DNA of 56,796 bases from Eledone cirrhosa (Eukaryota). Below, piece after piece: positions 4,583 to 42,789 of the stretch. The position numbers and the translations under genes are program-made. The stretch is taken from positions 1 to 56,796 of the forward strand of contig CAXHJY010001270.1 of the NCBI GenBank assembly GCA_964016885.1. The letters are read 5' to 3'. Numbering within the stretch: the first letter of the stretch is position 1; each line of letters begins with the position of its first letter. Under the pieces are notes generated by a model. That model made no database searches. It saw only the letters and a list, made by a program, of their open reading frames with translations, and was not told the DNA's origin.

Positions 4583-5301
4583 AGCCGCCGCCGCCTATTT
4601 TTTTTTTGCACTGGGTGGTTGCTGGCCTTGTGCCTGGGTTAGAAACCTTTATTTCGTATTGGTCTCGGCACTCTGAATTATTATTTTGTGGTAGTTTCTT
4701 TAGTATTTTTGGCCCCCCACTTGTTGACCCGTCACCGTAAGATATACTCGGTTGATTACTTATACCTCTTAAAAGGGCCTCATTATAATTCTGTCCCACC
4801 TAGTAAACCTTTCTTTAGTCTAGCAGTACCAGTGAGAGACTTGATAGCTGTCCTTAGGTTGTAGTAACCAGAAATTGTTTTTTTTACATTTAATTGTTTT
4901 TTTTAACATTCTCGGTATTTTTCTATATATTTACCCCATATTGTTTTACTTATTGTTTCGACGTCCCGCCCCTTCCCCTCCCTAGTATACTTCTCTTGAC
5001 CTCTTATCCTTAGGATTCCGCTGTATTTGGCACTATCAACGCACGACTGGGTTTCCTCCACTCCCTCTCCCTCTTTCTTCTACTGGTAGGTTCAGCTACC
5101 CCTCCCCTCCACAAATTGTCATGATAGAATTATGTGTCTCAACAACAAACCTTTGAGCAATCCTTGTGACAATCACTTTTACCATATATGGAATTACCCC
5201 TGAGAAGCTCGGCTATTCATATACCATGATAAAAATTTTCATTTAGTCCAGAATTAGCCGTCGAAACGGCTTGAGCTCAGCCGTCGGGCTCCTACTCATT
5301 C

Positions 5302-5304
<3 letters not shown>
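4583..5304 (+). mobile_element. Non-coding island between AT tracts: SINE tail plus family D repeat (probable PLE 3'UTR/pLTR)
   Basis: 4877-5304 aligns with 49867-50284; ends in a hammerhead-like motif then (AT)n. Confidence 0.75.
5196..5290 (+). ncRNA. Type-I hammerhead-like motif, family D, non-canonical core CUGAGAA
   Basis: ACCC-CTGAGAA-G..CGGCTA..TAGCCG.C-GAAA-CGGC TTGAGCTCA GCCG-TC-GGG. Confidence 0.7.
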
Positions 5305-5350
<46 letters not shown>

Positions 5351-5555
5351 TATATAATATATATATATAATATATATATATAATATATATATAATATATA
5401 TATAATATATATATATAATATATATATATATAATATATATATAATATATATATAATATATATATATAATATATATATATATAATATATATATAATATATA
5501 TATAATATATATATATAATATATATATAATATATATATATAATATATATATATAT

Positions 5556-5623
<68 letters not shown>

Positions 5624-5698
5624 TATATAATATATATAATATATATATATAATATATATATAATATATATATAATATATATATATATAATATATATAT

Positions 5699-5732
<34 letters not shown>

Positions 5733-6535
5733 TATAATATATATATATATATATATAATATATATATAATATATATAAAATATATAATATATATATAATA
5801 TATATATAATATATATATATAATATATATATATAATATATATATATAATATATATATATAATATATATATATATAATATATATGTATAATATATATATAT
5901 AATATATATATATAATATATATATATAATATATATATATATAATATATATGTATAATATATATATATAATATATATATATAATATATATATATAATATAT
6001 ATATATAATATATATATATAATATATATATATATATAATATATATATAATATATATATATAATATATATATATATAATATATATATATATAATATATATA
6101 TATATAATATATATATAATATATATATAATATATATATATATAATATATATATAATATATATATATAATATATATATATATTATACATATATATTATATA
6201 TATATATTATATATATATTATATATATATATTATATATATATATTATATATATATATTATATATATATATTATATATATATATTATATATATATATTATA
6301 CATATATATTATACATATATATTATACATATATATTATATATATATATTATATATATATATTATATATATATATTATATATATATATTATACATATATAT
6401 TATATATATATATTATATATATATATTATATATATATATTATATATATATATTATATATATATATATATTATATATATATATTATATATATATATTATAT
6501 ATATATATTATATATATATATTATATATATAATAT

Positions 6536-6578
<43 letters not shown>

Positions 6579-6594
6579 ATATATATATATTATA

Positions 6595-6626
<32 letters not shown>

Positions 6627-6673
6627 ATATATATATATATTATATATATTATATATATATTATATATATATAT

Positions 6674-6747
<74 letters not shown>

Positions 6748-6994
6748 ATATATATATATATAATATATATATATAATATATATATATAATATATATATAA
6801 TATATATATAATATATATATATAATATATATATATAATATATATATATAATATATATATAATATATATATATAATATATATATATAATATATATATATAA
6901 TATATATATATATAATATATATATAATATATATATATAATATATATATATAATATATATATATATAATATATATATATAATATTATATATATAT

Positions 6995-7028
<34 letters not shown>

Positions 7029-7048
7029 TATAATATATATATATATAT

Positions 7049-7082
<34 letters not shown>

Positions 7083-7235
7083 TATAATATATATATATAT
7101 ATATAATATATATATAATATATATATTATAATATATATATATATATATAATATATATATAATATATATATATAATATATATATATATAATATATATATAA
7201 TATATATATAATATATATATATATAATATATATAT

Positions 7236-7269
<34 letters not shown>

Positions 7270-7291
7270 TATAATATATATATATATATAT

Positions 7292-7337
<46 letters not shown>

Positions 7338-7870
7338 TATATATATATTATATATATATATAATATATATATAATATATATATATAATATATATATATAT
7401 ATTATATATATATATAATATATATATAATATATATATATAATATATATATATATAATATATAATATATATATATAATATATATATATAATATATATATAT
7501 AATATATATATATAATATATATGTATAATATAAATATATAATATATATATATAATATATATATATAATATATATATATAATATATATATATAATATATAT
7601 ATATAATATATATATATAATATATATATATAATATATATATATAATATATATATATAATATATATATATAATATATATATAATATATATATAATATATAT
7701 ATATAATATATATATATAATATATATATATAATATATATATATAATATATATATATAATATATATATATATATAATAGATATATAATATATATATATAAT
7801 ATATATATAATATATATATATAATATATATATAATATATATATATAATATAATATAAATATATAATATAT

Positions 7871-7904
<34 letters not shown>

Positions 7905-8081
7905 ATATAATATAAATATATAATATATATATATAATATAATATATATAATTGTTTCTACTTTTGGCACAAGGCCAGCAATTACCCAGTGTATTACTGGT
8001 ACTTTATTTTATCGACCCCATAAGGATGAAAGGCAAAGTTAACCTCGATATAATATATATATATAATATATATATATATAT

Positions 8082-8112
<31 letters not shown>

Positions 8113-8845
8113 ATATATATATATATATAATATATATATATATAATATATATATATATAATATATATATATATAATATATATATATAATATATAATATAT
8201 ATATATATAAAATATATATATATAAAATATATATATATAAAATAATATATATATATAATATATATATATATAAAATATATATATATAAAATATATATATA
8301 TAAAAGATATATATATAATATATATATATATATATAAATATAATATATATATATAAAATATATATATATAATATATATATATATAATATATATATATATA
8401 ATATATATATATAAAATATATATATATAATATATATATATATATATAAATATAATATATATATATAAAATATATATATAATATATATATATAATATATAT
8501 ATATATAATATATATAATATATATATAATATATATATATAATATATATATATAATATATATATAATATATAATATATATATATATATAATATATATATAA
8601 TATATATATAATATATATATAATATATATATAATATATATAATATATATATATAATATAATATATAATATATATATATATAATATATATATAATATCATA
8701 TATATAATATATATATAATATATATAATATATATATAATATATATATAATATATATATAATATATATAATATATATAATATATATATAATATATAATAAA
8801 TATATATATAATATATATATATATATCTATATATATATAATATAT
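5305..8845. repeat. (AT)n microsatellite array with periodic AA/TT interruptions
   Basis: Direct reading; orientation flips near 6180 and ~6680-6740. Confidence 0.98.
7950..8048 (-). mobile_element. SINE 3' fragment within the AT array
   Basis: Close match to 22165-22260. Confidence 0.85.
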
Positions 8846-8969
8846 GTAGGAGGTGAGTTTTATTGTAGTACAATAAAGCAATGCAGATATCAGATAAGAA
8901 GCACTCTACAGTTTGTAGGACTGGAGTATGCATAATATAAGATCAAAAGATGGTTAAAGGAGTTCCATG

Positions 8970-9040
8970 TATTTTATTATGCGCATTTCAAAAACAAACA
9001 TCATCATGCAATAATATTTGTGTTTTTATCAGATAAAACA
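8970..9040 (-). ncRNA. Hammerhead family B, core mutated (CUGAUAA)
   Basis: Reverse complement of 10818-10888 with G8>A at 9027. Confidence 0.75.
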
Positions 9041-9806
9041 GGAGAACATGATATGAAGGCTAAAAAACACTTGTGGATAGTGCAGTTTTAAATCTACATA
9101 TGAAAAGTGGTTTTAGATTGATGTGTGATATTGGGAAAAATATTTTATTTAGAGAGAGGGGGGGTGGAAAGGATGAAAAAGGGGGAGGAGATGAGAGGGA
9201 GAGATGGGTGATAGAGAGAAAGAGATAGCTTTTATAACTGAGAGGAGATATACTGTCCCACACAGAGAGGTTGAAAACCGTTGGAAGATAATGTATAAAC
9301 CCCAAAAAAATTTTTTTTTGAAAATCAACGAAAGGAGGATATGTGCGAGGAAAAAGTATTTTATTTAAGGAGGGGGGCTGGAAAGGATGAAAAAAAGGGG
9401 GAGGAGATGAGAGTGAAGGTGGAGAGGGAGAGATGGGCGATAGAGAGAAAGAGATAGTTTTTATAACTGAGAGAAAGATACATTGCCTTACACAGAGAGG
9501 TTGAGAAACCGTTGGAAGATAATGTATAAATTAAAGGAATTTGAAAATTAACGAAGGGAATTTATGTATGAAGATAGAGAGAAGAAATAATAATTGTGGA
9601 TGAATATTCTAACGTCAAAAAAAGGGTATGTTGTGGCAATTTCAAAATTAACGAAGAGAAAAATTATTAAGGTTTGTGTGTAGAAGGATTTGAGAAAAAT
9701 AATGTGAAGTTAAAGTTTGTATATTGGAGGAATTGATAATATATGCGAATAGAGTTAATATGTATTAAGAATGAGTTCGTTGATGGGGAGAAAAAAAGAA
9801 AAAAAA

Positions 9807-9837
<31 letters not shown>

Positions 9838-10817
9838 ATTAAGGATGAAATTCAGATTAAAAAGATTTATGAGAGAGAGAAAAAAATAATGATTGCGGAT
9901 AAATATTCTAACGTCAAAAAAAACAGATGTATATGTTATGAATGATTTTACAAGGTGAAGATAGAGTGAGGGTAATGAGTAAACAAGTATTATAGAGTGT
10001 ATAAAGCCCTTTAAAGTATGGTAGGAAGATGGGTATATTTTAAAGAGATGTATGTATATGTGCCTTTGAGAAAAGATTCTAAATTGATAAAGAATTGAAT
10101 ATTAACTGTATACTTTGTGAAAAGTTCTATGGAATTTATGCAGGCAGATAGAAAACAAATCTGTGCGTCTATTTATTATAGAATCTAGGTTAGAGATAAT
10201 GGTAAATTTTGAAATTGCCACAACATACCCTTTTTTTGACGTTAGAATATTCATCCACAATTATTATTTCTTCTCTCTATCTTCATACATAAATTCCCTT
10301 CGTTAATTTTCAAATTCCTTTAATTTATACATTATCTTCCAACGGTTTCTCAACCTCTCTGTGTAAGGCAATGTATCTTTCTCTCAGTTATAAAAACTAT
10401 CTCTTTTTCTCTATCGCCCATCTCTCCCTCTCCACCTTCACTCTCATCTCCTCCCCCTTTTTTTCATCCTTTCCAGCCCCCCTCCTTAAATAAAATACTT
10501 TTTCCTCGCACATATCCTCCTTTCGTTGATTTTCAAAAAAAAAAATTTGGGGGGGGGTTTATACATTATCTTCCAACGGTTTTCAACCTCTCTGTGTGGG
10601 ACAGTATATCTCCTCTCAGTTATAAAAGCTATCTCTTTCTCTCTATCACCCATCTCTCCCTCTCATCTCCTCCCCCTTTTTCATCCTTTCCACCACCACC
10701 CTTCTCTAAACAAAATATTTTTCCCAATATCACACATCAATCTAAAACCACTTTTCATATGTAGATTTAAAACTGCACTATCCACAAGTGTTTTTTAGCC
10801 TTCATATCATGTTCTCC

Positions 10818-10888
10818 TGTTTTATCTGATGAAAACACAAATATTATTGCATGATGATGTTTGTTTTTGAAATGCGCATAATAAAATA
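10818..10888 (+). ncRNA. Type-I hammerhead ribozyme, family B
   Basis: TGTTTTAT-CTGATGA-long helix II-GAAA-TGCGCA(palindrome)-TA-ATAAAATA; 8-bp helix I. Confidence 0.88.
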
Positions 10889-10978
10889 CATGGAACTCCT
10901 TTAACCATCTTTTGATCTTATATTATATATAATATATATATATATAATATATATATATAAAATATATATATAATATAT

Positions 10979-11012
<34 letters not shown>

Positions 11013-11156
11013 AAATATATATATATATAATATATACATATATATAATATATATATATATAATATATATATATAAAATATATATATATAATATATATATA
11101 TATAATATATATATATATAATATATAAAATATATATATATATAATATATATATATA

Positions 11157-11190
<34 letters not shown>

Positions 11191-11236
11191 ATATACAATA
11201 TTAAATAAATGGAAACTATATTTATAAAACCATATT

Positions 11237-11302
11237 TATTTCATTATATATATTTCAGGGATATCATATTAACAATATGCTATGCCTTCCTCAGACAAAA
11301 TA
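11237..11302 (-). ncRNA. Hammerhead family A (inverted copy)
   Basis: Reverse complement of 12575-12640. Confidence 0.85.
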
Positions 11303-12574
11303 CAATATAAACAGTTTTATAGATAACTAGATTCGACATACCGTAACAACATCGACTTGTATTTGAAAAGGTTGATTTGGCAGTGAAAAAATTGTACACA
11401 GAGAGAAAGATGTGATTTGATAGATAATTGCTAGATGTGATTTGATAGATAATTTTTGGCTTTATCTGTTTTTCGACTCTGATGCTTATAATGAACTTGG
11501 CAATATATTGTCAATTAATTTTGAAGGGTTGATCTTTGTGGTTTATTTTTATTTTTATTATTGTAGTATTTTCTAATATTTTTATTTTTAATATTTTTAA
11601 TATGTAAATTTTTTAATATGTAATATTTTTAATATGTAATATTCTTTCGTAATATTTTTTAGTTTTCTATTTTATTATTACTTATTATTATTATTGTTAT
11701 TTTTTAGTTTTGTTTCTGATATATATTTTTATTAGTATATTGAAATCTGCTCTCTATTTCTGCTTGATAGATAATCTTGTAGAGTAAAGACAGGAATAGT
11801 AATATTGACTCTATATATATTTGTGTGTATATATATACACATATATCTATACTTAAATTTTTATACCACATTGAGAATGTTTTCCGTGAATTTAGGGTTT
11901 GCAGAGTTGATCATGTAGATTCACATAGATGTTTGTAGCTATCACATAAACATATGAATTTTTTTTTTTAAAAACTAAACATAAGATCATTAATTTTCAC
12001 ACATTATGGATACTTGTCTCATTCAGGAATACTGATATTTACAATATAGTGGCTGGTTTTTATAAATACTAATACCTCTACATTAAAACATAGGGTTTTT
12101 TACGTCTCGCCTATATCTGGTTATTTTTAAATTTTTTCTCTCTCTATATTTTTTCTCTCTCTATATAACGGCTGGTTTCTCTCCATATATCTCCCTTACA
12201 TTAATACTAGAGCTAAATAAATAAATAAATAAATAAATGTATCATTGATACGTTTACTCAACAGACGTCCCACTACCTAATTTTCTATATATATATGTAT
12301 CTATCTCTATTTCCTCTCTCTCTCTATATATATATATATCTCTTTCTGTTTCTTTACATGAAGTTCTTCTCTTTATCTATCTTTCCATCTCTCTATTTTG
12401 TTCCATGCATTTCTTCTTTTTCTTCTTTTTCTTCGTTTTCTGTCTTTCTTTCTTTTTTTCTCTCTTTCTTTCTCTCTGTGTACAATTTTTTCACTGCCAA
12501 ATCAACCTTTTCAAATACAAGTCGATGTTGTTACGGTATGTCGAATCTATTTATCTATAAAACTGTTTATATTG

Positions 12575-12640
12575 TATTTTGTCTGAGGAAGGCATAGCAT
12601 ATTGTTAATATGATATCCCTGAAATATATATAATGAAATA
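12575..12640 (+). ncRNA. Type-I hammerhead ribozyme, family A
   Basis: TATTTTGT-CTGAGGA-AGG..CATATT..AATATG..CCT-GAAA-TATATA-TA-ATGAAATA. Confidence 0.85.
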
Positions 12641-12687
12641 AATATGGTTTTATAAATATAGTTTCCATTTATTTAATATTGTAAATA

Positions 12688-12711
12688 TACTCCAAATATT
12701 TGTCGAGTGCT
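12688..12711 (+). other. Conserved PLE tail hairpin (family A)
   Basis: TACTC-CAA ATAT TTG-TC-GAGTG-CT. Confidence 0.7.
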
Positions 12712-12770
12712 TTTATATCAGTTATAAATATTTACTAGTTGTAACCCAACAATTTAAATATAACTTTCCA

Positions 12771-16771
<4,001 letters not shown>

Positions 16772-17524
16772 TAGTGAGACCTGGGCATTGTGTGCAGAGG
16801 ATATACGCAGACTGGAGAGAAACGAAGCTTGCATGCTCCGCTGGATGTGTAATAGTAATATACGTGAACGGCAAAGCATAAACGAACTAAGGGAGAAATT
16901 AGGAATAAGAGGGATCAGATGTTGTTTACTCGAGAGAAGACTACGTTGGTACGGTCACGTGATGCGCATAAAAGACGACAGCTGTATAAAAAAGTGAGGG
17001 CGATAAAAATAGACGGTAGCCACGGAGTAGGCAGACCCAGAAAAACCTGGGACGACTTGATAAATTCCGACATCATACATTTACACCTCTCCAAGGCAAT
17101 GTCACTGGACAGTCATACCGAAGACCCGCCTTGCCTAAGTACAAAGCGAAACCTACAGTCAGTAGGCACCTCTAACAAAATACACCCCGTCCCACTACCC
17201 CCACCCCATCCACACCACCCCCTTAAATGTGAAGTTATGTTGGTACCACAATATCCAGTCCGAAACAAATGAGGTCGTGTAGGTGTCACGACAAAAAAAC
17301 ACACAGTCCGCGCTGTAATGTGGCCGTGTAGGTAACACGGTAAAAACCTCCCAGTCCACACTGTAAACGTGGTTGGTGTTAGGAAGGGCATCCAGCCGTA
17401 GAAAACCCGCCAGACAGTCCTATACAAGCAGGACAACAAATCTTGCCTCAAGTGGGAAACCTCTCATCCAAACCCATGGAAGCGTGGAAGATGGACATTA
17501 AACGATGATGATGATGATGATGAT
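16772..17524 (+). mobile_element. 5'-truncated RTE LINE, subfamily 2
   Basis: [19 protein letters not shown]...[11 protein letters not shown], 3'UTR and (GAT)n tail; matches 38328-39105. Confidence 0.95.
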
Positions 17525-17931: not shown

Positions 17932-20900
17932 TTTTCTGGGTGGGAAATGATGGTGGGATGGGTGGTGTAGGTATACTACTAGCTGACAAGTGGGTAGATA
18001 AAGTAATCTCAGTGTACAGAGTAAATGTAAGAATCATTAAGCTCAGACTAGTCCTGAATAAAACAATTACCACAATAACATCAACTTACGCACCCCAATC
18101 GGGGCTGCCAGACGAACTTAAGGATAGGTTTTACGAGTCCCTATTGCACACTACTGCTCTAACCGACGACAATGACTTCCTAATCATCGCCGGAGATTTT
18201 AACGGACACGTAGGTAAACACTGCGACGGCTTCAATAGAGTACATGGAGGCCATGGGGTTGGCACAAGAAATGAGGAAGGATTCAGACTTCTAGAATTCT
18301 GCGACGCCAATGACATGTCGATATGTAACACAAACTTTAAAAAACCCGACAACCACCTGATCACCTATAGATCAGGGGAGCACTCTAGTCAGATAGATTT
18401 TATCCTCATCAGAGGACGTGACAGATGGATGGTCGTAAACACAAAAGCATTCCCTAGTGAGGAATGTACATCCCAACATAGCTTAGTTGTCAGCGACCTC
18501 ACAGTCAGAACTAGACGAACCTGGAAACAGAGGCCAACCTGGAGAAGAAAGATCTGGAAGCTGAAAGACCCCTCAACCAGTAACAGATTTAAAGATATTT
18601 TACTCAACGCCTACGACAGTAAAGAAGAACAGATAGAGACATTCAATGTAGAAAAGAACTGGGAGTTCCTAAAAAATAACTTACTAGAGGTGACGGATGA
18701 GGTCTGTGGCTGGAGTAAGACCTCAAGCAGGAGGAGAGTGACCTGGTGGTGGAACAATAAGGTAGATGAGGCAGTTAAGGCCAAGAGACAGGCATGGAAA
18801 GAATGGAAGAATGGGGGGAGCAGGGTACATTACATAGAGACCAAGAGGGAAGCTAGGCGACAAGTATACATAGCTAGGAGGGAAGCAGAGGATAGAAAAT
18901 GCAAGCATGTTTTGCAACGTGAGGACCAGAAACAGGAGGTGTTTAAGATTGCGAGGCAGTGTGTCAGAGAGAATTGTGATGTCATTGGAGAGAAGTGTAT
19001 CCGGAATGATAAAGGTGAGCTTGCCCTCACAAGTGCTGATAAGAAAGATGCATGGAAGAGTCATTATGATAGATTACTAAATGAGGAGAATGCATGGGAA
19101 GAAGAGACCCTACCCCAAGTAGACCCTATAGAGGGACCAGCAGTACAAGTCAGCAGCAACGTAGTAAGTAAGGCAATCAAAGATATGAAGATGGGGAAGG
19201 CAACCGGTCCATCAGGTATAGCTGCCGAGATGCTGAAGGCATCTGGGTCTGTAGGTCACACTATAACCACACGTATTGTTAACCAGGTAATACTAGAAGG
19301 TGTCATACCAAAAGATTGTGTAGTAGCATCATTGTCAACTGCTACAAAGATAAAGGTGATGCACTAGATAGAGGAAACTATAGAGGTATAAAGCTGATGG
19401 ACCAGGTCATGAAATTAACAGAAAGAGTTATAGCACAGTTGATTAGGGACTGGGTGAAACTAGACGAGATGCAATTTGGGTTTGTACCAGGAAGAGGCAC
19501 CACTAATGCCCTCTTCCTTGTCAGGCAGTTACAGGAAAATTACCTAGCTAAAAGTAAGCATTTGTCGACCTTGAGAAAGCCTTTGACAGAGTTCCACGTG
19601 CTGTAATCTGGTGGGTGGGCTCTTAGAAAACTAGGAGTAGATGAATGGCTTGTGAAAGCAGTACAAGCCATGTATAGGGGAGCAGTCAGCAAAGCTAGGA
19701 TTAGCAATGAGTATAGCCAGGAATTTAGCGTACAGGTTGGGGTCCACCAGGGCTCTGTTCTTAGCCCCCTCCTGTTCATCATAGTCCTGCAGGCAATAAC
19801 GGAGGAGTTTAAGACCATGGGAACTCCTGTATGCTGATGACCTCGCACTTATAGCTGAATCTATGGTAGAACTAGAGAAGAAATTCCAAACTTGGAAGCA
19901 GGGACTAGAAAGAAAGGGTCTCAAAGTCAACATGACAAAGACTAAGGTCCTTGTAAGTAGACGAGAAAACAGAACCCAGATCCCCTCAGGGAAATGGCCT
20001 TGCTCAGTATGTAGGAAAGGTGTAGGTAGGAACTCCATTCTCTGCCCCAAATGCAAACAATGGGTACACAAGAGATGTAGCGGGATCTCAGGAAGCTTAA
20101 TTAAGAATGTAGGCTTCACATGCAGCAGCTGTGCTGGGACAGCAAGCAGCAAACAGCCACAGGAAACAAGTACCACCAATCTCTGGGAGGGCTCTGTAGA
20201 AACAGTAGACAGCTTCTGCTACCTAGGTGACCGAATTAGCAGCGGAGGTGGATGTTCAGAAAGTACAATAACTAGGGTAAGAACGGGATGGAAGAAGTTT
20301 AGGGAACTACTACCACTGCTAGCTGCAAAAGGCTTCTCCCTCAAAATGAAAGGCAGACTGTATGATGCGTGTATCTGAACAGCGATGTTGCATGGTAGTG
20401 AGACCTGGGCGCTGAAGGTGGAAGACTTACGTAGATTAGAGAGAAACGAAGCCTGCATGCTCCGATGGATGTGTAATAGTAATATGTGCGAACGACAAAG
20501 CATAAATGAATTGAGAGAGAGACTGAGCATAAGAGGAATCAAATGCTGTGTGCAGGAGAGGCGGTTGCGTTGGTATGGACATGTGATGCGTATGAAGGAT
20601 GACAGCTGCATAAAAAGGTTCAGAGCACTAGAAGTCGATGGAAACCGCGGAGTGGGGTGATCCAAGATGACCTGGGATGAGGTGATAAAAGCCAACCTTA
20701 CCCAATTACACCTCTCAAAGGCGATGACACATGACCGTGACCTCAGGCGTCACGCAGTAATACAAAGTACCCGACCTCCCATGGGTACAAGCTGAAGCAT
20801 ATAGACAATATGCCCCCACACCCCCCACTGCAAGGTGGTCGTGGAGGTGCCATGGCAAAAAAGCACCCAGCCCACACTGTAAAGTGGACGTGTAGGCGCC

Positions 20901-21088
20901 ACGAAAAAGCACCCACCACTCACTGTAAATGAGGTTGGTGTTATGAAGGGCATCCAGCTGTAGAAATCAAGCCAAATCAGTTCCTGTATGAGCAAGGCAT
21001 GGTCAGCCGACCAGACACTGCCCAAAACAGGACAACCCGTCTAGCCCATGCTAGCATGGAAGAACGGACGTAAAACGGTGATGATGAT
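17932..21088 (+). pseudogene. RTE LINE subfamily 1; APE, RT and Cys/His finger with several frameshifts and stops
   Basis: GDFNGHVG, IDFIL, NYRGIKL, QFGFVPG, GVHQGSVLSP, YADD (19850-19861 region), CSVC..CPKC..H..C; breaks near 19317, 19560-19620, 19817, 20376. Confidence 0.97.
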
Positions 21089-21271
21089 ACAAATATACAC
21101 ACATATATACATATATACACACATATATACATACACACATATACACACACACACACATTCACACACACAAACACACATATATATATATACATAGAATAAA
21201 AAAAATGCGAAGTAGTTTCAGTTGTTAAAGTCCTTTATTGATAAGGCTGTAATATATATTTCAATATATAT

Positions 21272-24012: not shown

Positions 24013-24440
24013 CATAAAACAGGTAGTAGAAAGGAAAAAGATTTTTTCAGTAGAAAATGTTGAAGAGATTCTTTCAGTGAGATATCAAAACATTAATTTA
24101 TTTACAATACTGGTTTCAGCATTTTATGCATTGTCAATTGCGGATATGCAGAATATTGTTAAGTTGCATATTTGTACAAATAGTGATAATAATAATAATA
24201 AAAAGGGAAAGAAAAATTAATTTCCACATACATATTCATTCAGAGAAGAGAGTTCATTTATCTATCCATCCTTCTCTGTTAATAGCTATTAATAGCTATT
24301 AACCGGTTCTGTAAATAAATTAATGTTTTGATATTTCACTGAATCTCTTCAACATTTTCTACTGAAAAAAATCTTTTTTTCTTTCTACTATTTGTTTTTA
24401 TATATATATATCAACTCGTGTGTTACTTTTCTACATTCGA
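24013..24440. mobile_element. Old inverted-repeat element (arms ~24013-24115 / 24301-24400), probable PLE pLTR remnant, family H
   Basis: ~100-bp imperfect inverted arms, AT flanks, hammerhead-like motif at 24104-24141(-), truncated tail hairpin at 24414-24440. Confidence 0.65.
24104..24141 (-). ncRNA. Minimal hammerhead-like motif with U3-A8 core
   Basis: GCAA-TTGACAA-T GCA TAAAA TGC T-GAAA-CCAG-TA-TTGT; the other arm has the palindromic CCGG. Confidence 0.55.
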
Positions 24441-24515: not shown

Positions 24516-25336
24516 ATATATATGTGTGAAGTAATTCCGTCGGAAAGGTCCACGAAAAAAGAGTGCTCTATGTAGGTTCCAGAGCTTAATAGTTGTCATA
24601 AACAACATCAGATAATTATTTCATTTACCAGTGGTTTCTTGAAAGCAAACAAAATTTGCTTTCAGTCATCAGAATGAAAAAAATCCTGGTGTATTTATTG
24701 ACAGTGGATTTTAAAAACAAAATATAATCTATATGAAAGTGAGGCTGGAAAAGGAAGAAGGAAAGGAAAAAGAATAAATATAAAAGTAGATATACACACA
24801 TGCACACACACACACACAAATACATACACACATATATACATATATATATACATCTATATATATATATACATACACACATCTATACACACATACACACATA
24901 TATATATATACACACATATATATATACACATATCCATACATACACACACACAAATACACAAACACACACACATGTATATATATACACACACACATAATCA
25001 TACATATATACACACGTACAAACACACATACATACACACATATATACATACGCACACACATATATAGATATATGTACACACACCTACATACGCACACACA
25101 ATTAATTATAAGAAAAAATAAGAAAAAATAATAATAAAAAACAAAAATAAAAAACAATGGACAACTATATATTACAAAAGGCCGTCACATCAAAATAAAA
25201 ATAAAAATAAAAAATAAAAAATATACGACTTAAGAAAATAAAACTAAAAATTATTATAAAGTTGACAGCGATTCAAGAAAGGACACAAATAAATAAATAA
25301 ACACACGTGGTAAGCAATACACACATTTACACATAC

Positions 25337-26526: not shown

Positions 26527-26599
26527 GGTCAGGTAGCTCAGTCGGTAGAGCAGCGGACCGGCAATCCAAAGGTGGTGGGTTCGATTCCCACCCTGATTA
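26527..26599 (+). tRNA. tRNA-like sequence, probably a pseudogene or SINE head; nominal anticodon GGC
   Basis: 73 nt; acceptor GGTCAGG/CCTGATT, D-arm GCTC/GAGC, T-arm GTGGG-TTCGATT-CCCAC; anticodon stem has 2 mismatches and C33. Confidence 0.65.
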
Positions 26600-26712
26600 C
26601 TTTTCCTATCTGCACTTCTTCCTATTCATTATTATTTATTTAACTTATTTGTTGATAAATATTTTTAATATTAATATAATATCCTTGCATTGCCTGGAAA
26701 AAAAGTGGATTA

Positions 26713-27915
26713 CAGGGAAAAATGCGGGCGCATGTAAAGAAATATTCTTAAATTAATAAACCTAGAAAAGTAAAGGACAAGTTATTACACCTGGAAAAGT
26801 AAAGGACAAGAAAACTTCTTAAAACTTCTTAAAATATTGCAGCTAAAGTCTAAATTTGAAAAAAAATATTTAGATTATAAAACTAAAAATAAATAATTAT
26901 AAGTTAATTGTTAAAAAAATATCACTTTAAAGGACTGGAAAAATGACTGTCTTATAGGGAGAGTTGACTACTGTATACTTAATTTTTTTCTTGGTGTATA
27001 CAAATTAATCTTTTTAAAATAAAATTTGTACAATAATTTGTACAATAATTAATTAATAATAATAATAATTAATATGTACAATTTATTAATTTATGTTATA
27101 AGATATTTAAAAATTTTCACTCTTAATCAAATTATATTTTTAAAAATTTAGTTATAAAATAATGCAGTAAAATAAATCAAAAACAATGCATCATATAATT
27201 GCATTTTTTATGAGTATTACAGATTTTTTTTATAATATAGTAAAATTCAACATCTCAAGGGGCAAAATTAGGTAAAAGTCAATTCATCAATTATTCATTT
27301 ATAGTGAATCAATCAATTTTAGTGAATTCATCAATTCATTAGATGAACTGTTGAATTAGACAATGTTTAATTTTTAATTGTAGTCTAATTTTACTCTACC
27401 TAAAAATGTAGATTGGTTATTTTGATCTCTGACAGGTCTTAAATTTCATTATTAAACAATTATAATTTGTTATTATTTATCATTACAGTTGGCTCCCTAA
27501 TTAATTATTAATTAATTGTTAGTGTCATTTACACGCCAAAATTTTGTTTTATTTGATGTTTATAATTGTCACTCATTTTTTCAGTCCCATTTAGTAAAGT
27601 AAAATAAAGTATATTTATTTAATGACCCAACCACTATGGTGTAAATTAGGATCACAAAATTAAATAAATGATCATAAATTAGTATTATTATCAATTAGAG
27701 AGTCAACTGTATTATTAGAATTTATCACTTTCTATGTATATTTAAATCAAATATTTTTTATTATTCAAATTTATACTATAGCTGCAATATTTTAAGAAGT
27801 TTTAAGAAGAAGTTTTCTTGTCCTTTACTTTTCCAGGTGTAATAACTTGTCCTTTACTTTTCTAAGTTTATTAATTTAAGAATATTTCTTTACATGCGCC
27901 CGCATTTTTTCCCTG
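26713..27915. mobile_element. Non-autonomous DNA transposon (Tc1/mariner-like) with ~135-bp TIRs and TA TSD
   Basis: TA|CAGGGAAAAATGCGGGCG... and ...CGCCCGCATTTTTTCCCTG|TA; internal direct repeats GAAAAGTAAAGGACAAG in each TIR. Confidence 0.88.
27486..27709. mobile_element. Nested 224-bp pogo/mariner-like MITE
   Basis: TA|CAGTTGGCTCCCTAATT ... AATTAGAGAGTCAACTG|TA. Confidence 0.75.
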
Positions 27916-27955
27916 TAATATATATATATATATATATAAGAAAATACATAATTAT

Positions 27956-27979
<24 letters not shown>

Positions 27980-27986
<7 letters not shown>

Positions 27987-28169
27987 AAAGGTGGAAGGGG
28001 TAAACAAATAGTTGGGAATACGACAAATAATAAATAAATAGATAAAGGTATCAATGTTTATAGCTGATTTAGAGCACTCAACAAGTTCCTGGAACAAATA
28101 ATCAATGAAAATAAACATTAAATCACTCTGTATGTAATTATGCATACAGATATATATATAATTATATAC

Positions 28170-28204
<35 letters not shown>

Positions 28205-30542
28205 CACATATACACAACACATACATACACACAGAAATAAATATCTATAAATAAAAAAGCTGGGTAAGGGTAAGGTAGAAAATATGGGGGAATAAGGAAA
28301 ATAAATAACATAGAAAAAAGTTTAAATATAAAGGGAGATAAGGGAGAAAAAGAATAGAGTACAGAAAGTGAGTTCAGAGAGTAATAAAAATCATAGTGGA
28401 TGTAGAGAGCAGAGAAGAAGTTCAAGGTGGTTGAGTCATCGTAGGAATGTCAATCCAGTTACAGATCAGATGTGATTTCAGGTGAGGACAACATCTGAAG
28501 ATCTCGGTCTTGGAGTTCAGATAAGTTGAAGTGGCTTTCAACTTTTGTAGAATCCTAAATTTTTCAGTGGTACACAAAGAACAATTCTTTGTGCCCCTTT
28601 GGTATTCCCTCGAATGGTCTAAAATAGACCAATCGATAGAGTACAGGATGTTTTTATCTTTGAATTCCCACACCTTATTTGCGAGAGCCATTGCTGTTCT
28701 TTTATCAGAGTGTTTAAAAGAAGCGACATGTGCATAAAACCTGGTTTTGAACCTGTCCTGAGTCATGCCAACATATCGTTCACTCCTGGCTGGCTGGTTG
28801 TTAATTAAAGGTGTCACTTTGGCCTCATATACAATGGATTTGGTATTACATTTGCCCTGTAATGGGCATTCATCCTGCTTCCTGCAACTGCATCCTGGAT
28901 TTATTCTCGTACGATTAGAATTGGTGATTTTAGACTTCATTGATGGGCAGCAAGAGTAACTGATTTTAACTACATTTCTATTAAATATCTTATAATATCT
29001 ATGATTAGGAGGAAAATGTTTGTCTAAGAGGTCAAGGAATTTCCTTCCTACATTAGTTTTGACAGTTAGAGAGAAGGGGGGGGTGTAAACCAAATAATTT
29101 TCCTTTTCCTATTATTGTGGTTAGTTTTAGGGGGAGGAGTAGGTAAATATTTAATGTGTTCTGTAAAACCGCTGTTATTAAGGACTTTATTATGATAAGG
29201 GGCGGCTTTGTTAAAAATGTCTAGAGACGAAGATAAGGTAGAAACCCTACGGCTAATGTTGGGAATAAAATTTTTAAAAACTATAGGGAGATGGCAAGAC
29301 TCTTTGTGTATATATCTAAGATTTTCGTTAGGTTTCTGATAAGGTTTAAAAGAGGCAGTAAGTAGATCAAGAAAGTTAACATTGGTAAGGTTCGTATCTA
29401 TAGTAATTTTAAGGTTAAGATTAGCAAAAGTATTGATTAAATCTTTACGGAATTTATCAAGGTTATGGCCGCTGTGGTATGAGAAACTGCCAATCCGTCG
29501 TCATGGTATAAACTGATATTATGGGAAGGAAATTTCTCTTTAAGGGTGTGGAGAAGGAATAATCATACTAAGTCACATGCATCCACACTGTCATATGAAC
29601 CCATTGCAATATCAAAAGAGTTTTCAGGGTTTGACTTTTTAACCCAAATACTTTCATTAGTAAAGAGTAGAGTTTTCCTAGCATGAAAGATAATGTCTTC
29701 TTCTAATTTAAAAATATTAATGAACGTCTTGCAAAATCTAAGGCTTTAGTTAATAGGGAAACAGTAATAGAGGGGTAAAAATCAACAATATCAAATTGGG
29801 TAAATCTACACTTATTTTTACCTTGTATATTATTAAACCAAGAAATAACAGAGGATGTATTTAGCCACTGTGATAACTCAGTCTTAGTTCTAATTTGGAG
29901 AATTATTTTTCTTAAGATTTTTTACTTGCAAGGCCAACTTCGGATTTAGCCGGGTTAATCAGTCTACAGCTAGATCGATTAGTAAAGTCTAATTTATGGT
30001 CTTTAAGGGTAATATATTCTTTACATTTAGCTAGGCTTTCTATCTGGTTGTCTATTTTAAAAAAACCAGCTAGTTCTTTAGCTTCTTTATTAATAGTATT
30101 GTAAGTGTTATTATTAGTTAATTGATATTTGTTGGTGATACTATTAGTTAAAAGTTGGTTATACAAAATACTATTAACTTCAAAGAGATTTTTAGTTTTA
30201 TCGGAAAGAACAAAAGTGTTCGTAGAATTTTTAAAATTAGAAATATCGTTAGACAGTTTAGTTTGAAAATTATTATTGTACTTACGAAATTTGATATCAC
30301 TAATTAAATTAACAAGGTCTAATTCGAAGTTGGCCATGTCTTTAATTCTAGGTGGGTATTTACGGGATTTTATGTCAAAACAATCATTTGTATCAGCACT
30401 GAATAGTCCATCGTTAAACCATTGCCTTCCATCTCATTCTTTTAACGACTTGTTCGATTTTATCTATAAGCTGTTTGGTATAAGTTGTGTTGGAAGGAGT
30501 AGGTATATTTTTGATTGAATAATCCAATTCATAAAGGTCCAT
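27980..30542 (-). mobile_element. Penelope-like element, family C, with full-length but disrupted ORF
   Basis: ORF remnants from 30542 to 28422; 3'UTR ending in an AT tract; tail hairpin at 28073-28096. Confidence 0.93.
28422..30542 (-). pseudogene. PLE RT plus GIY-YIG endonuclease, frameshifted
   Basis: MDLYELDYSIKNIP..KRMRWKA, SDKTKN, RLINPAKSE, AMGSYDS, YHDD, CSCRKQDEC, IVY..YVG, CSLC, RCCPH; in-frame stop at 29563-29565. Confidence 0.92.
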
Positions 30543-31399
30543 GGAACTATATTATTTATTTATGTTCATACACAACAAAAGCGTTACCAAAAGTTTCAAG
30601 GCCCAATATTGACCATATCTGCAGATTTTACGGGGGATCAAAATTGTGACCTAATTTTCAGGTGCTTAAATTAAGAAAATACATTGATCCAACTTTTTGC
30701 CAAACATATGTATACAAAAAAGATAATTTACCTTAATTTCGGAAAAGTCAGGCTGTGACATCTCTTTATCATTTGACACCTGAAATGAATGAAACATCAA
30801 AATATAAACAAACTATGAACAACTTATCACTTTTTAAATAAACATGAATTCTGAGATTCTTAAAATATAGAGGGATATTCTAATGTTGTATTATTCATAC
30901 CTTTACCAAGAGTTTTAAATAAAACTTTAGTTGAAAATTAAAAGCATCTTTTAATTTCATTCACTAAGAACATGCCATCACACTATCATTATCATCATCA
31001 ACATTATTCTATGATTTTTTTTCATTTGAATGGTGAGAGAGAGAGAGACTAGTTGTTCTTCATGAATGGTCCACAGCACATTTTTAAATAGCAGACTTCA
31101 AGTAGCATACACTGCCCATTCACAGCACATCACATCACACTAACATATTTTTCCCACTTGTATGCATTGATGGTACTTTTAATACCCAGCATTGCACTCA
31201 GATCACTTGTGCTTTACCATTCATGCAGGTAAACTTCATTCATATCCAACAATTCATACTCACCTCATTTCTCTCCAACCTTCTCAAATCCAGATTCAGT
31301 GTCCTTATCATATCACAATGTTGCATTATATTTTGTAAACAGGATTCATTTATTACTCTTATATATGGATACATGATCATTGAGTGAAGAAGCGCCAAA

Positions 31400-33372: not shown

Positions 33373-34657
33373 GAAGAAATTCCAAACATGGAAGCATGGC
33401 CTAGAATCAAAAAGCCTTAAAGTTAACTTGATTAAAGTCCTAATATGTAGGAAAGAGAATAGGGCACTGGTCCCATCTGAGAAATGGCCATCCTCGGTGT
33501 GTAGGAAAGGAGTAGGCAGAAACTCCATTTTATGTCCCAAATGCAAAGTATGGGTGCATAAAAGATGTAGTGGGATCACAGGTAAGCTAACTAAGAATAT
33601 AGATTTTATATGTGGCTGGTGCTCTGGTGCAAGTAGCAGCAAATGCCCACAGAATACTAGCTCATTCCATTGCCCAGATGGTTCTATAGAAATAGTGGAC
33701 ACCCTCCGTTACCTGGGTGACAAAATCAGTAGTGGTGGAGGGTGCTCCGAAAGTACTGTAGCTAGAGTCCAAACAGGATGGAAAAAGTTCAGAGAGCTTA
33801 TACCACTATTGGCCACTAAAGGTTTCTCTCTAAAAATAAAAGGCAGGCTGTATGATGCCTGCCTACGAACAATGATGTTACATGGCAGTGAGACATGGGC
33901 CTTGTGTGCAGAGGATCTACGCAGACTGGGGAGGAACGAAGCTTGCATGCTCCGTTGGATGTGTAATAGTAATATACGCGAACAGGAAAGCATAAATGAA
34001 CTAAGTGAGAAATTAGGAATAAGAGGGTTCAGATGCTGTTTACTCAAGAGAAGACTACGTTGGTATGGTCACGTGATGCGCATGAAAGATGACAGCTGTA
34101 TAAAAAAATGCAGGGCAATCAAAATAGACGGTAGCTACGGAGTAGGTGGACCCGGAAAATCCTGGGACAACTTGATAAAATCCGACCTCACACACACCTC
34201 TCCAAGACAATGTCACTGGACCGAGATCTTTGGCGCTACATAGTAATACAGAAGACCCGCCTTGGCTAAGTACAAAGCGAAACCTACAGTCAGTAGGCAC
34301 CTCTTAACCAAAACACACCCCCGTCCCACTAACCCTACCCCACCGCCATCTACACCACCCCTTTCGATGTAAAGCTATGTTGGTACCACAACATCCAGTC
34401 CTAAATAAATGAGGTCGTGTAGGTGTCATGACAAAAAAACACACAGTCCACGCTGCAATGTGGCCATGTAGGTAACACAGTAAAAAGCTCCTAGTCCACA
34501 CTGTAAACGTGGTTGGTGTTAGGAAGGGCATCCAGCCGTAGAAAACCCGCCAGACAGTCCTGAGCAAGAAAACCAATCTTGCCTCAAGTGGGACAATTCT
34601 CGTCCAGACCTATGCTAGCGAGGAAAATGGATGTTAAACAATGATGATGATGATGAT
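33373..34657 (+). mobile_element. 5'-truncated RTE LINE, subfamily 2
   Basis: [24 protein letters not shown], 3'UTR and (GAT)n tail. Confidence 0.96.
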
Positions 34658-34666
34658 ATATATATA

Positions 34667-34732
34667 GTGTAGGTGATTCAGGGATTTACTAGTGGTGGTA
34701 CCAAAACAAGCACTCTATGCACAGGCAGAGTA
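34667..34732 (-). other. 66-bp tail-only fragment starting exactly at the conserved hairpin
   Basis: TACTC-TGC CTGT GCA-TA-GAGTG-CT; TA repeats on both sides. Confidence 0.6.
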
Positions 34733-38306: not shown

Positions 38307-38327
38307 TTCACATATATATATATATAT

Positions 38328-41300
38328 CATCATCATCATCAACGTTTAACGTCCGTGTTCCACGCTTGCATGGGTTTGGACGGGGGTAGTCCCACTTGAG
38401 GCAAGAGTGATTGTCTTGCTCGCATAGGACTGTCTGGCAGGTTTTCTACAGTTGGATGCCCTTCCTAACACCAACCACATTTACAGTGTGGGTCTGGGAG
38501 GTTTTTACCGTGTTGCCTACACGGCCACATTACAGCGTGGACTGTGTGTTTTTTTGTCGTGACACCTACACGATCTCATTTGTTTCGGCCTCGATGGCGC
38601 GGCACCAACATAACTTTACATAGAACGGGGTGGTGTGGATGGGGTGGGGGTGGTGGTGGTGGGACGGGGTGTATTTTGTTAGAGATGCCTACTGGCTGGA
38701 GTAGGTTTTACTATATATTTAGGTAAGGCGGGTCTTCTCTGTTACTGAGTACCGCCAAAGGTCTCGGTCCAGTGACATTGTCTTGGAGAGGTGTAAGTGT
38801 GTGATGTCGGAGTTTATCAGCTCGTCCCCGGTTTTTCTAGGTCTGCCTATTCCGTGACTACCGTCTATCTTTATTGCCCTGCACTTTGTTATACAGCTAT
38901 CGACTTTCATGCGCATCACGTGTCCATACCAACGTAGCCTTCTCTCGAGTAAACAACATCTGATCCCTCTTATCTCTAATTTTTTCCTTAGTTCGTTTAT
39001 GCTTTGCCGTTCACGTATATTACTGTTACACATGCAGCGGAGCATGCAAGCTTCGTTCCTCTCTAGTCTGCGTATATCCTCTGCACACAATGCCCAGGTC
39101 TCACTGCCATGCAGCATTGCTGTTCGTATGCAGGCATCGTACAACCTGCCTTTCATTTTTAGGGAGAACCCTTTAGCAGCTAATAGTGGTATAAGCTCTC
39201 TGAACTTTTTCCAACCAGTTCTGACTCTAGCTACAGTACTTTCAGAGCACCCTCCCCCACTGCTGATTTTATCGCCCAGGTAACGGAAGCTGTCCACTAT
39301 TTCTATAGAACCCTTTGCACAATTGAAAGAGCTAGTATTTTGTGGGCACTTGCTGCTGCTTATTGCACCAGAGCACCGGCCACATGTAAAATCTATGTTC
39401 TTAGTTAGCTTACCTGTGATCCCACTACATCTTTTATGCACCCATACTTTGCATTTAGGACATAAAATGGAGTTTCTACCTACGCCTTTCCTACACACTG
39501 AGCACGACCATTTCCCAGAAGGGACCGCCGCCTTGTTTTCTTTCCTACAAACTAGTACTTTGGTCTTAGCCAAGTTAATTTTAAGTCCTTTTGACTCTAG
39601 GCCGTGCTTCCATGTTTGGAATTTCTTCTCTAGCTCGGCCATTGATTCCGCTATGAGTGTCAGGTCGTCTGCGTATAGGAGTTCCCATGGGCAGCCTGTC
39701 TTGAACTCCTCTGAACTGCCCTGAAGGGCAATAATAAATAGTAGTGGGCTGAGAACAGAGCCCTGATGGACGCCAACTTTTACGCTAAACTCTTCACTAT
39801 ATTCGTTGTTAATTCTAACCTTGCTGACTGTTTCTTTATACATGGCTTGTATAGCCCTCACAAGCCATTCGTCAACGCCTAGTTTTCTAAGAGCCCACCA
39901 GATAATGGAGCGGGGGACTCTGTCGAAGGCTTTCTCCAAGTCGACAAAAGCTAAGTAGAGGGGTTTACCTTTAGCTAGGTACTTCTCCTGTAGTTGTCGT
40001 ACTATGAAAAGAGCGTCTGTGGTACTTTTGCCTGACACAAACCCGAACTGCATTTCATCTAGGTCAATTCTCTCTCTGATTAGTTGCGCTATTACTTTTT
40101 CCGTGACCTTCATGACCTGGTCGATTAATTTAATGCCTCTATAGTTACTCCTATCTAGGGCGTCTCCTTTACCCTTATAACAGTTAACGATGATGCTGCT
40201 ATGCCAGTCCTTCGGAACAACCCCATTCTGTACGACTTGGTTAACTATGCGGGTGACCATGGTGTGTCCCACCGTGCCAGATGCCTTCAGCATCTCAGCA
40301 ACTATTTCCGAAGGCCCAGCCGCCTTACCCGTCTTCATATCCTTGATTGCCTTACTTATTATACTCCCCTCGACTAACACTGCTGGTCCCTCTATTGGGT
40401 CGATATGGGGGAGACTGTCTTTCTCCCATTTATTCTCCTCATTTAGTAGCCTTTCATAGTGACACTTCCAAGCTACCTTATCAGCGTCGGTGATGGCAAG
40501 TGTGCCATCATCGTTTAGTACACACTTCTCCCCGACAATATCACGGTTTTCCTTGACGCATTGCCTAGCAATCCTGAACACCTCACATTTTTGGTCATCG
40601 CGTTGTAGAACATGCTTGAACTTTCTTTCCTCAGCTTCCCTTCTTGCTAAGTACACTTGTCTCCTAGCTTCCCTCCTGGCCACTTGATAGTCTTCTCTAC
40701 TTCCCCCATCCCGCCATACTTTCCAAGCCTGCTTTTTGGCCTTAATTGACCCCTCCACCTTACTGTTCCACCACCATGTTACTTTCCTCCTGCCTACAGG
40801 CCTGCTCCAGCCACAGACTTCGTCTGTCGCCAACAGCAGGTTTACTTTCAGAAATTCCCACTCTCCCTCTATATTGTCCGACTCTAAATGTTCTTCCTTA
40901 CTGTCGAAAGCATCAAGTAATATGCTTTGAAATTTATTCCTGGCTGTGGGGTCCTTTAGCTTCCATATTTTTCTCCTGAGGATAGTCCTCTTCTGCTGTC
41001 GAGTACGTCTCGTCCTGACTATGAGGTCGCTAATTATCAGTCTATGTTGGGAGGTGCATTCTTCATGGGGGAGGGATTTAGTGTTTACAACAGACACTCT
41101 GTCACGTCTTCTGGTAAGGATATAATCTACCTGGCTTGTGTGTTCCCCGGATCTATAGGTGATCAGGTGATTGTCACGTTTTTTGAAGTTAGTGTTACAG
41201 ATAGTTAGGTTATTCGCATCACAGAATTCCAGGATTCTGGAGCCTTCCTCATTTCTAGTACCAAACCCATAGCCTCCATGGATTTCGTCGTAGCCGTCAC

Positions 41301-41596: not shown

Positions 41597-42328
41597 TAAC
41601 ATATATATATACACATATATTCACATATATATATATAAACACATATATTCACATATATATATATATATGTGAATATATGTGAATATATATATATATGTGA
41701 ATATATATATATATATTCACATATATATATATAAACACATATATTCACATATATATATATATATGTGAATATATGTGAATATATATATATATGTGAATAT
41801 ATATATATATATTCACATATATATATATATATATTCACATATATATATATATATATTCACATATATATATATATATATATTCACATATATATATATATAT
41901 ATATTCACATATATATATATATATATATTCACATATATATATATATATATATTCACATAAATATATATATATATTCACATAAATATATATATATATATTC
42001 ACATATATATATATATATTCACATATATATATATATATATATTCACATAAATATATATATATATATTCACATATATATATATATATATATTCACATATAT
42101 ATATATATATATATTCATATATATATATATATATATTCATATATATATATATATATATTCACATATATATATATATATATATTCACATATATATATATAT
42201 ATATATTCACATATATATATATATATATATATATTCACATATATATATATATATATTCATATATATATATATATATTCACATATATATATATATATATAT
42301 ATATTCACATATATATATATATATATTC

Positions 42329-42388
<60 letters not shown>

Positions 42389-42434
42389 ATATTCATATAT
42401 ATTTATATATATATATATATTCATATATATATTC

Positions 42435-42492
<58 letters not shown>

Positions 42493-42495
42493 ATA

Positions 42496-42533
<38 letters not shown>

Positions 42534-42753
42534 TATATATATATATTCATATATATATATTCATATATATATATATTCATATATATATATATATTCATAT
42601 ATATATATATATTCATATATATATATATATATTCATATATATATATATTCATATATATATATATATTCATATATATATATATATTCATATATATATATAT
42701 ATTCATATATATATATATATTCATATATATATATATTTATATATATATATATT

Positions 42754-42789
<36 letters not shown>

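Follow-up and report, generated by a model that had tools for sequence, protein, structure and literature searches.

Penelope-like elements (PLEs) are retrotransposons that form the sister group of the telomerase reverse transcriptase (RT). To our knowledge, the origin of the PLE tail and of the inverted PLE ends has been open for decades, just one element has been assayed in vitro, and the RNA signal of that element is undefined. Here we analyze PLE ends in a 56,796-nucleotide stretch of DNA from Eledone cirrhosa (GenBank assembly GCA_964016885.1, contig CAXHJY010001270.1, positions 1 to 56,796 of the forward strand; hereafter, the window), an AT-rich sequence with long (TA)n-type tracts, long interspersed nuclear elements (LINEs) as well as remnants of several PLE families, denoted here by letters; its repeat landscape appears to resemble that of cephalopods. 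In our favored reading, which we consider fairly probable, the ends of Hydra-type PLEs are set by duplicated hairpins, each of which probably anchors the RT on the RNA, with the cut (TA)n target priming at a TA step upstream.

In the published descriptions, PLEs typically have a 30-40 bp tail on one side and, next to them, a truncated copy in inverted orientation (PMC8557442, PMC3846280, PMC2377424), and hammerhead ribozymes are known in their pseudo-long terminal repeats (pLTRs) (PMC4209133). For PAc, a Poseidon element of Anolis carolinensis, the RT is reported to start at two internal sites, with the tail as the interval between them, and both target strands are cut and extended (Frangieh et al. 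2024, PMC11167929); hence, the second precise site and the two classes of 3' ends that an earlier note on this DNA had put forward are already published in principle. Like the elements of the window, Penelope of D. virilis and the Pen families of Adineta vaga show partial tandems, inverted pLTRs, palindromes at inverted junctions and an optional tail (31-37 bp) on one end, whereas no conserved duplicated hairpin is reported in the portions of these papers used here, and the tails are shorter (PMC2377424, PMC3846280). Within the Hydra clade as described by Craig et al. (2021, PMC8557442), tails measure 30-40 nt, compared to ~55-130 nt here, and relatives carry GCTC/GAGC where the window families mostly have ACTC/GAGT.

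The Hydra hairpin signal works like the two-site initiation of PAc but differs from it as a signal. Common to both are an upstream hammerhead and an AT-rich target, together with two internal RT start sites that bound the tail, cutting and extension of both strands and a predicted dimer, of which the start sites, the cutting and the dimer are putative in the Hydra elements. PAc, however, belongs to another clade, and its starts lie 111-118 nt inside the open reading frame (ORF), in an AC-rich stem-loop without target homology (PMC11167929), whereas those of the Hydra elements precede the ATG and sit 5' of a bulged hairpin present in two copies, where a conserved TA/AT step corresponds to the target sequence. 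The words "hairpin" and "stem-loop" have no occurrences in the main text and supplement text of PMC8557442 that were examined, although its consensus sequences carry the motif, and the motif was not found described in the literature searched, including bioRxiv 10.64898/2026.07.22.740005 (figures, some older PLE papers and Repbase entries lay outside the search). What appears to be new is a conserved, duplicated cis signal of Hydra PLEs that would set both classes of ends, for which we found no earlier description.

Judging from their motifs, the window families appear to be the 3' ends of Hydra-type PLEs, a clade of marine-animal elements. The frameshifted ORFs of families A and C gave alignments to PLE-like proteins in which a PLE-type RT is followed by a C-terminal GIY-YIG-type domain, although the four ORF pieces of these two families gave no match in Pfam. 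The A ORF (43658-44518 and 44475-45593, with Hydra motifs) belongs to a long, 5'-truncated copy (43671-47026, + strand), and C is a decayed, near-full-length element (27980-30560, - strand; RWK, DKT and CxCX5C present) with a tailed end and a hairpin variant, GTTC..GAGT, at 28095. A search with an alignment of the A and C proteins and 18 of 20 database relatives yielded 78 related metagenome loci (from the best 80 of 478 confirmed) with a median pairwise protein identity of 46.5% that fall into 72 clusters at 80%; no relative was found in the viral collection. Three features given as diagnostic of the Hydra clade in PMC8557442 recur here: the CxCX5C linker (A, C and 71/78 loci), DKT in place of DKG (A, C and 42/78 loci, with DKG in none) and the N-terminal RWK (C and 36/78 loci; A is truncated before that point). 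Family A also contains CxxC..CxH around a conserved E and N (regular-expression search), and the alignment of the A and C proteins with database relatives contains no CCHH inside the endonuclease. The Neptune and Nematis clades, the former being the first guess, were accordingly rejected: the CX2-5CxxC linker, CCHH and DKG that characterize them are lacking here. Non-LTR retrozymes were rejected too, given that the copies are single or head-to-head and form no tandem arrays of short hammerhead-bearing units.

Insertion into (TA)n, another Hydra-clade trait, holds for all listed window ends and is seen in reads. Families B, D, E, G, H and I have no coding sequence attached but share the hammerhead and/or the hairpin and the TA target, and are thus putative members of the Hydra clade. 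A scripted search identified type I hammerheads in A, its diverged copy A2, both arms of B, G (14872) and H (24672) and none in C; the hammerhead-like motifs of D and E were read by eye only. In A and B, the hammerheads lie ~45-50 nt upstream of the breakpoints. No hammerhead or hairpin family was among the 150 best of the 189 Rfam matches.

The window copies were delimited by self-BLAST with simple repeats masked, and their ends were then compared base by base. In family A, the main, tailed arm (11411-12769, +; tail ~12684-12769), with a hammerhead at 12577-12640 (core 12583, predicted cut after 12632) and a hairpin at 12689-12711 (ACTC, upper stem CAAA..TTTG, bulge TC, GAGTGCT), adjoins an inverted tail-less arm with hammerhead (11191-11410, -; core 11294), and a 20-nt duplicated piece and AGA microhomology lie at the central junction. 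The main arm of family B, a 5'-truncated PLE 3' region (8846-10201, -; tail 8846-8931), has its hairpin at 8903-8927 (ACTC, CAG..CTG, TA, GAGTGCT) and its hammerhead at 8972-9038 (cut predicted after 8978; the core, at 9032, is changed to CTGATAA on this arm); its inverted tail-less arm (10202-10926, +) contains a hammerhead with core 10826 and a predicted cut after 10880. Family E forms a near-perfect palindrome with a 2-nt center from a tailed arm (51743-52083, -; long-loop hairpin 51872-51792 with ACTC, TGTA..TACA, TT and GAGTTCT; hammerhead core by eye at 52083) and a tail-less one (52084-52288, +). Family D is represented by two tailed copies (2557-2697, +, hairpin 2626-2649 with ACTC, TAC..GTA, TT and GAGTACT; and 49868-50372, +, hairpin at 50291) and one tail-less copy (4875-5304, +; hammerhead-like motif by eye, core ~5200, GAAA 5263). 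The A2 copy is tailed (54408-56117, -; hammerhead core 54591, hairpin at 54485).

The earlier note had placed the tail-less ends of these families 4-6 nt upstream of the hairpin, with ACTC starting at 12689 (+), 8927 (-), 2626 (+) and 51872 (-). All four starts are correct, as are the gaps of 4 nt, counted to the strict last matching base, for the B arm ending at 8932 and the E arm ending at 51877. For the inverted A arm (end 11194-11191, equivalent to 12683-12686) and the long A copy (end 47023-47026), the last strict match is indeed the equivalent of 12683, with a gap of 5, but the actual gap is 0-5 nt, and the D copy ending at 5304, the equivalent of 2619, has a strict gap of 6 that shrinks to 3 if one mismatch is allowed. 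The strict offsets are lower bounds, blurred by TA microhomology. Base 12684 of the window's tailed A copy is private, the reads having mostly T (15574/16230 and 790/887), and therefore both tail-less A copies match through 12686, and the reads align to 12689; family A thus has the sequence ...GTATAT(A/C)T-ACTC, and the A break can be placed no closer than 12683-12689.

All five tail-less ends join (TA)n. With the two A ends counted as one family, the window provides four families and five ends; the families had been described as unrelated, and indeed A, B, D and E do not align to each other (blastn), but they have the type I hammerhead and the hairpin in common (by eye for the D and E hammerheads) and hence are not of independent origin. 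They likely inherit one common signal, as far as can be judged from these motifs. The shared extents contain 81-385 TA/AT steps, 2-4 of which lie 2-8 nt before ACTC; were the ends spread over such steps, the chance of all five falling in this interval would be ~3e-9, a figure uncorrected for the post hoc choice of motif and interval.

Comparison with the 78 relatives indicates that the ACTC..GAGT element of the window is a variant of a conserved bulged hairpin, GCTC-stem/loop-TN-GAGCACT, that lies downstream of the relatives' hammerheads. The strict motif has 83 sense matches in 47/78 loci, compared to 6 antisense matches and 0-3 in 20 local shuffles. Among 62 non-redundant hairpins, the 2-nt 3' bulge begins with T in all 62, and the first pair of the upper stem is Watson-Crick in 60 (41 C-G, 19 T-A), the second in 44/62 and the third in 36/56; these counts, which are uncorrected for phylogeny, were reached by 0/5000 shuffles, and bulge registers of 0, 1 and 3 nt gave no such signal. 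Compensated lower stems occur as well (ACTC/GAGT, TCTC/GAGA and GCAC/GTGC). In the window, the hairpins of A, A2, B, D, E, H and I are built alike; only that of H keeps GCTC/GAGC, and the others carry ACTC/GAGT in its place.

At intact pLTR-ORF junctions, two copies of the motif lie between the hammerhead and the start codon, with a distance of 55-83 nt in 25 loci (a looser pattern yields two copies 48-83 nt apart, plus one overlapping 16-nt artefact), and the ATG follows 23-74 nt after the start of the second hairpin. The published consensus of Hydra-1_Ajap begins 2 nt before hairpin 1 and contains both hairpins before the ATG, those of Hydra-2_Ajap and Hydra-2_Amil end in a tail with one hairpin copy, and Hydra-1_Crog has degenerate hairpin forms only (by eye). 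Hairpin 2 is not visible in the window families because the pLTR-ORF junction is intact in none of them, and any role that it has there is deduced from the relatives. A possible decayed second hairpin lies at 30545-30590 (-), ~20-40 nt before the family C start codon, and is too degenerate to count.

Among the relatives, 52 alignments had internal 3' divergence, 29 of which were listed, with minus/minus duplicates omitted; the 15 distinct terminal copies among them that lie at or after the hammerhead make 16 with one further minus-strand pair from a separate comparison. Thirteen of the 16 stop just before a hairpin, 7 before hairpin 2, thus carrying hairpin 1 as a tail, and 6, tail-less, before hairpin 1; the gaps are exactly 2-4 nt in seven copies and 0-7, 1-4, 0-5, 3-12, 3-12 and -4 to 8 nt in six copies with mismatches near the end. 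Counted by family, 11/13 end before a hairpin (p ~6e-8 against a TA/AT-step null of 0.154). In a second set of 17 loci, some families of which overlap the first set by eye, 5 of the 6 copies with their own reference end at gaps of 4, 4, 5, 5 and 6 nt, and the first upper pair is Watson-Crick in 11/11 sense hairpins. A TA/AT step is found at gaps of 4, 5 and 6 nt before hairpins with frequencies of 0.68, 0.59 and 0.49, compared to 0.10-0.36 at other gaps, and TAT or ATA occurs in the last 10 nt before the hairpin in 45/60 cases, compared to 17-24/59 further upstream.

Because the ends sit before either hairpin 1 or hairpin 2, the tail corresponds to the interval that separates the two occurrences of a single signal. 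The two 3' end classes at fixed positions relative to the hairpin, which the earlier note had predicted, are thus borne out in distant relatives, as they are in the family A reads, and its 4-6 nt offset matches the peak of the conserved TA/AT step. Its view of the tail hairpin as the marker of a second site applies to the tail-less end, but in the relatives a second hairpin copy marks the tailed end too.

Reads from 4 of 14 listed runs were aligned on 11411-12769 and hence speak to family A only. Loose (TA)n ends behind 12689 were found in at least 5322 raw reads of run X12 (restriction site-associated DNA sequencing from another study), at least 25 contigs of run X1 (possibly the same source as the window) and at least 3 contigs of run X5 (organism B, a second organism), the counts being among the ends listed, with 376 further rows uncounted and 29 ends at repeats dropped, so that they define a hotspot and not a full histogram. 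In run X6 (organism C), one contig breaks off at 12689, with non-TA sequence beyond it, and another at 12767, with TA beyond. X12 coverage drops between 12684 (17117) and 12687 (11206); given the library type, reads are not copy counts. The tail-less end class of family A thus recurs in a second study and a second organism. In the same alignments, the depth on the hammerhead-plus-tail module (12515-12769) is up to ~100-fold above that of the upstream untranslated region (UTR), and upstream of 12620 many of the reads continue into another stem II; subfamilies seem to share or swap this 3' module. There are also an opposite-strand joint 12670/12689 (21 reads, 3 starts) and rare joints that end at 12679-12683 and restart upstream, each in <=6 reads or a single contig; both kinds may reflect jumps of the template or very small inverted units.

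A 5'-truncated inverted copy with an optional tail on one side only is seen in A, B and E, and all 5 head-to-head units (these three, pre-selected by the earlier note, and two in L093) have exactly one tailed arm. The arms are identical at 708/718 positions in B, 216/217 in A and 205/205 aligned bases in E, that is, 98.6-100% within units, compared to 88.7% between A copies. Family I is a solo tail in a TA tract (34666-34731, -) that starts at its ACTC..GAGTGCT hairpin (34731). The single tailed arm per unit, the near-identical arms and this solo tail fit priming of both target strands on one RNA. The solo tail in particular would be consistent with a cDNA begun at site 2 and ended at site 1.

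The hairpin with its covarying upper stem, the tandem duplication in relatives, the positions of the ends and the TA/AT step are direct observations, from which we infer the rest of the mechanism. The template would be a read-through tandem RNA, on which the hairpin would anchor the element's RT, and the GIY-YIG domain would cut the (TA)n target, whose 3' end may pair with the UA/AU step of the template 4-6 nt upstream of the hairpin. A start before hairpin 2 would copy hairpin 1 and yield a tail, and a start before hairpin 1 would leave none. Where extension takes place on both target strands, one per site, the two cDNAs would join by microhomology into a head-to-head unit with one tail. Beyond this, we entertain, as a possibility more speculative than probable, a clade-wide twin RNA signal, whereby an RT-endonuclease acting as a dimer would hold the two bulged hairpins of a single RNA and prime both strands of the cut (TA)n at two programmed TA steps in a single event. 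If so, the tail, its one-sidedness, the head-to-head repeats and the solo tails would all follow from the spacing of the hairpins. In LINE-1 twin priming, two target 3' ends likewise prime on one RNA, giving an inversion joined by microhomology; there, however, the arms are not known to overlap nor the second site to be programmed, whereas here each arm repeats sequence of the other and a motif fixes the two sites.

Several observations weigh against priming at hairpin-anchored sites. PAc, in the published account, shows neither target homology nor a strand difference in its start site (PMC11167929). The strict hairpin is missing from 31/78 loci, some of which perhaps merely lack the region, no clear hairpin pair was seen by eye at the 5' end of Hydra-1_Obim, and 6 lower stems are unpaired, three of them representing an alternative register in one family. 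Three of the terminal copies (L016, L007 and L004) and one of the second set (L081) end elsewhere. The covariation counts are uncorrected for phylogeny (median protein identity 46.5%), and an RNA fold is not favored over a DNA fold, G-U occupying 13 upper-stem cells vs 10 for A-C. The hairpins are also weak, with z of +1.3, -1.2, +0.1 and +0.3 in four of five segments and -3.0 only in family H, and the D and L018 segments adopt other pairings in their minimum-energy folds. Finally, in none of A, B and E does the tail-less arm exceed the tailed one in length, which fits fold-back synthesis as well.

An unlikely alternative is that the hairpin is read as DNA, in single-stranded cDNA, in the second strand or as a cruciform, and that the GIY-YIG domain resolves a longer intermediate by a cut a few bases 5' of the hairpin, so that the two copies are two cut sites. 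RNA is not favored by the strand test, wobble pairs are rare (13/221 cells), and the conserved TA step would also suit an AT-cutting nuclease. Moreover, Craig et al. (2021, PMC8557442) attribute the tail to endonuclease-mediated resolution, and the endonuclease of D. virilis Penelope is reported to have required the tail in plasmid DNA for recognition and cleavage (cited in PMC11167929). PAc, however, is reported to initiate reverse transcription at both tail boundaries on an RNA template (PMC11167929), and the orientation of the motif is fixed on the hammerhead's strand (83 vs 6 matches).

We regard as very unlikely a fold-back origin, in which the cDNA would fold back on itself, serve as its own template and halt or be resolved at hairpin 1, the tail-less inverted end being the stop point. 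Tail-less direct copies that have no partner end at the same place (47023 and 5304 in the window; L026, L052 and L074), and a stop at hairpin 1 does not account for the tailed ends, which behave likewise at hairpin 2. Nevertheless, the 2-nt center of the E palindrome, the 98.6-100% identity of the arms and the length of the tail-less arm noted above speak in its favor, and palindromic junctions have been interpreted as self-priming (PMC3846280).

It is more improbable still that the RNA is cleaved or terminated just upstream of the hairpin at the latter's direction, providing two RNA 3' ends for ordinary end-primed target-primed reverse transcription. A self-cleaving motif is already close by in these elements, and RNA-seq read ends of PAc are reported to coincide with its start sites; yet, a longer 3' end of the PAc template left the dominant product unchanged (PMC11167929), which points to internal initiation, and none of the 150 best of 189 Rfam matches assigns the hairpin itself to a family. 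That the ends merely cluster in an AT-rich patch joined by (TA)n primers, microsatellite expansion or assembly errors, with the hairpin serving another purpose such as translation control, is scarcely credible: the 10 nt before the hairpins are 78% A+T and the second hairpin lies 23-74 nt before the ATG, but the UTRs offer 81-385 TA/AT steps and the ends use those beside the hairpin, the same junction recurs in raw reads and other organisms, and some relatives end there in non-TA flanks (L010, L012 and L043).

Under the hairpin-anchored reading, a short, strongly covarying motif predicts both ends across families that are ~45-55% identical in protein and offers a direct experimental handle. 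The hairpin is also a boundary and orientation marker for the annotation of Hydra elements and their stubs without an ORF, as well as a candidate cis signal for RNA-templated insertion with internal priming, and the twin hairpins would explain the long-puzzling optional tail of PLEs.

Two further PLE families occur in the window. Family H (24528-24685, -), absent from the earlier note, combines a hammerhead (core 24672) with a canonical GCTC..GAGCACT hairpin at 24585 (folding z = -3.0). Family G (14746-15022, +) has a hammerhead (core 14872) and a hairpin-less end in (TA)n, as expected of a tail-less copy, although the window contains no tailed reference for it. Downstream of the 3' arm, 95 related loci often have GAG-NN-CTC, which is nearly palindromic, and window families A, B, C and I have the reverse-complement center there (TG instead of CA). 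In loci L079-L095, Hydra PLEs and (TA)n tracts appear within records of bacterial genomes, several of them titled symbionts or metagenome-assembled genomes, which likely reflects contamination of the assemblies by the host animal. In L063 (2272-2567), L088, L093 and L095, different Hydra families pile into the same TA tracts, tail to tail or nested.

LINE copies with an internal PHD-finger match (17932-21092, 38327-41598, 33374-34656 and 47519-48448), which we take to be RTE-like, lie in (TA)n tracts, interleaved with PLEs, and a 958-aa ORF in the window encodes an RT and an endonuclease (Pfam). The TA tracts at 41601-43670 and 47031-54394 have a recurring TTCAC interruption, and those at 5305-16773 are instead of TAA or TAC type. 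Two inverted repeats considered as PLE arms were rejected, their sequence reading as DNA elements with terminal inverted repeats: one, at 26710-27917 (the repeats spanning 26711-27917), has ~170-bp terminal inverted repeats and TA flanks, adjoins a tRNA match (26527-26599) and presumably is a miniature inverted-repeat transposable element (MITE) of the Tc1/mariner type, and the other, a short MITE-like element between TA runs (24017-24397), has ~100-bp inverted ends that stop at equivalent points. A perfect 100-bp palindrome centered on (TA)n occupies 1204-1303, with a diverged third copy of one arm at 1340-1401.

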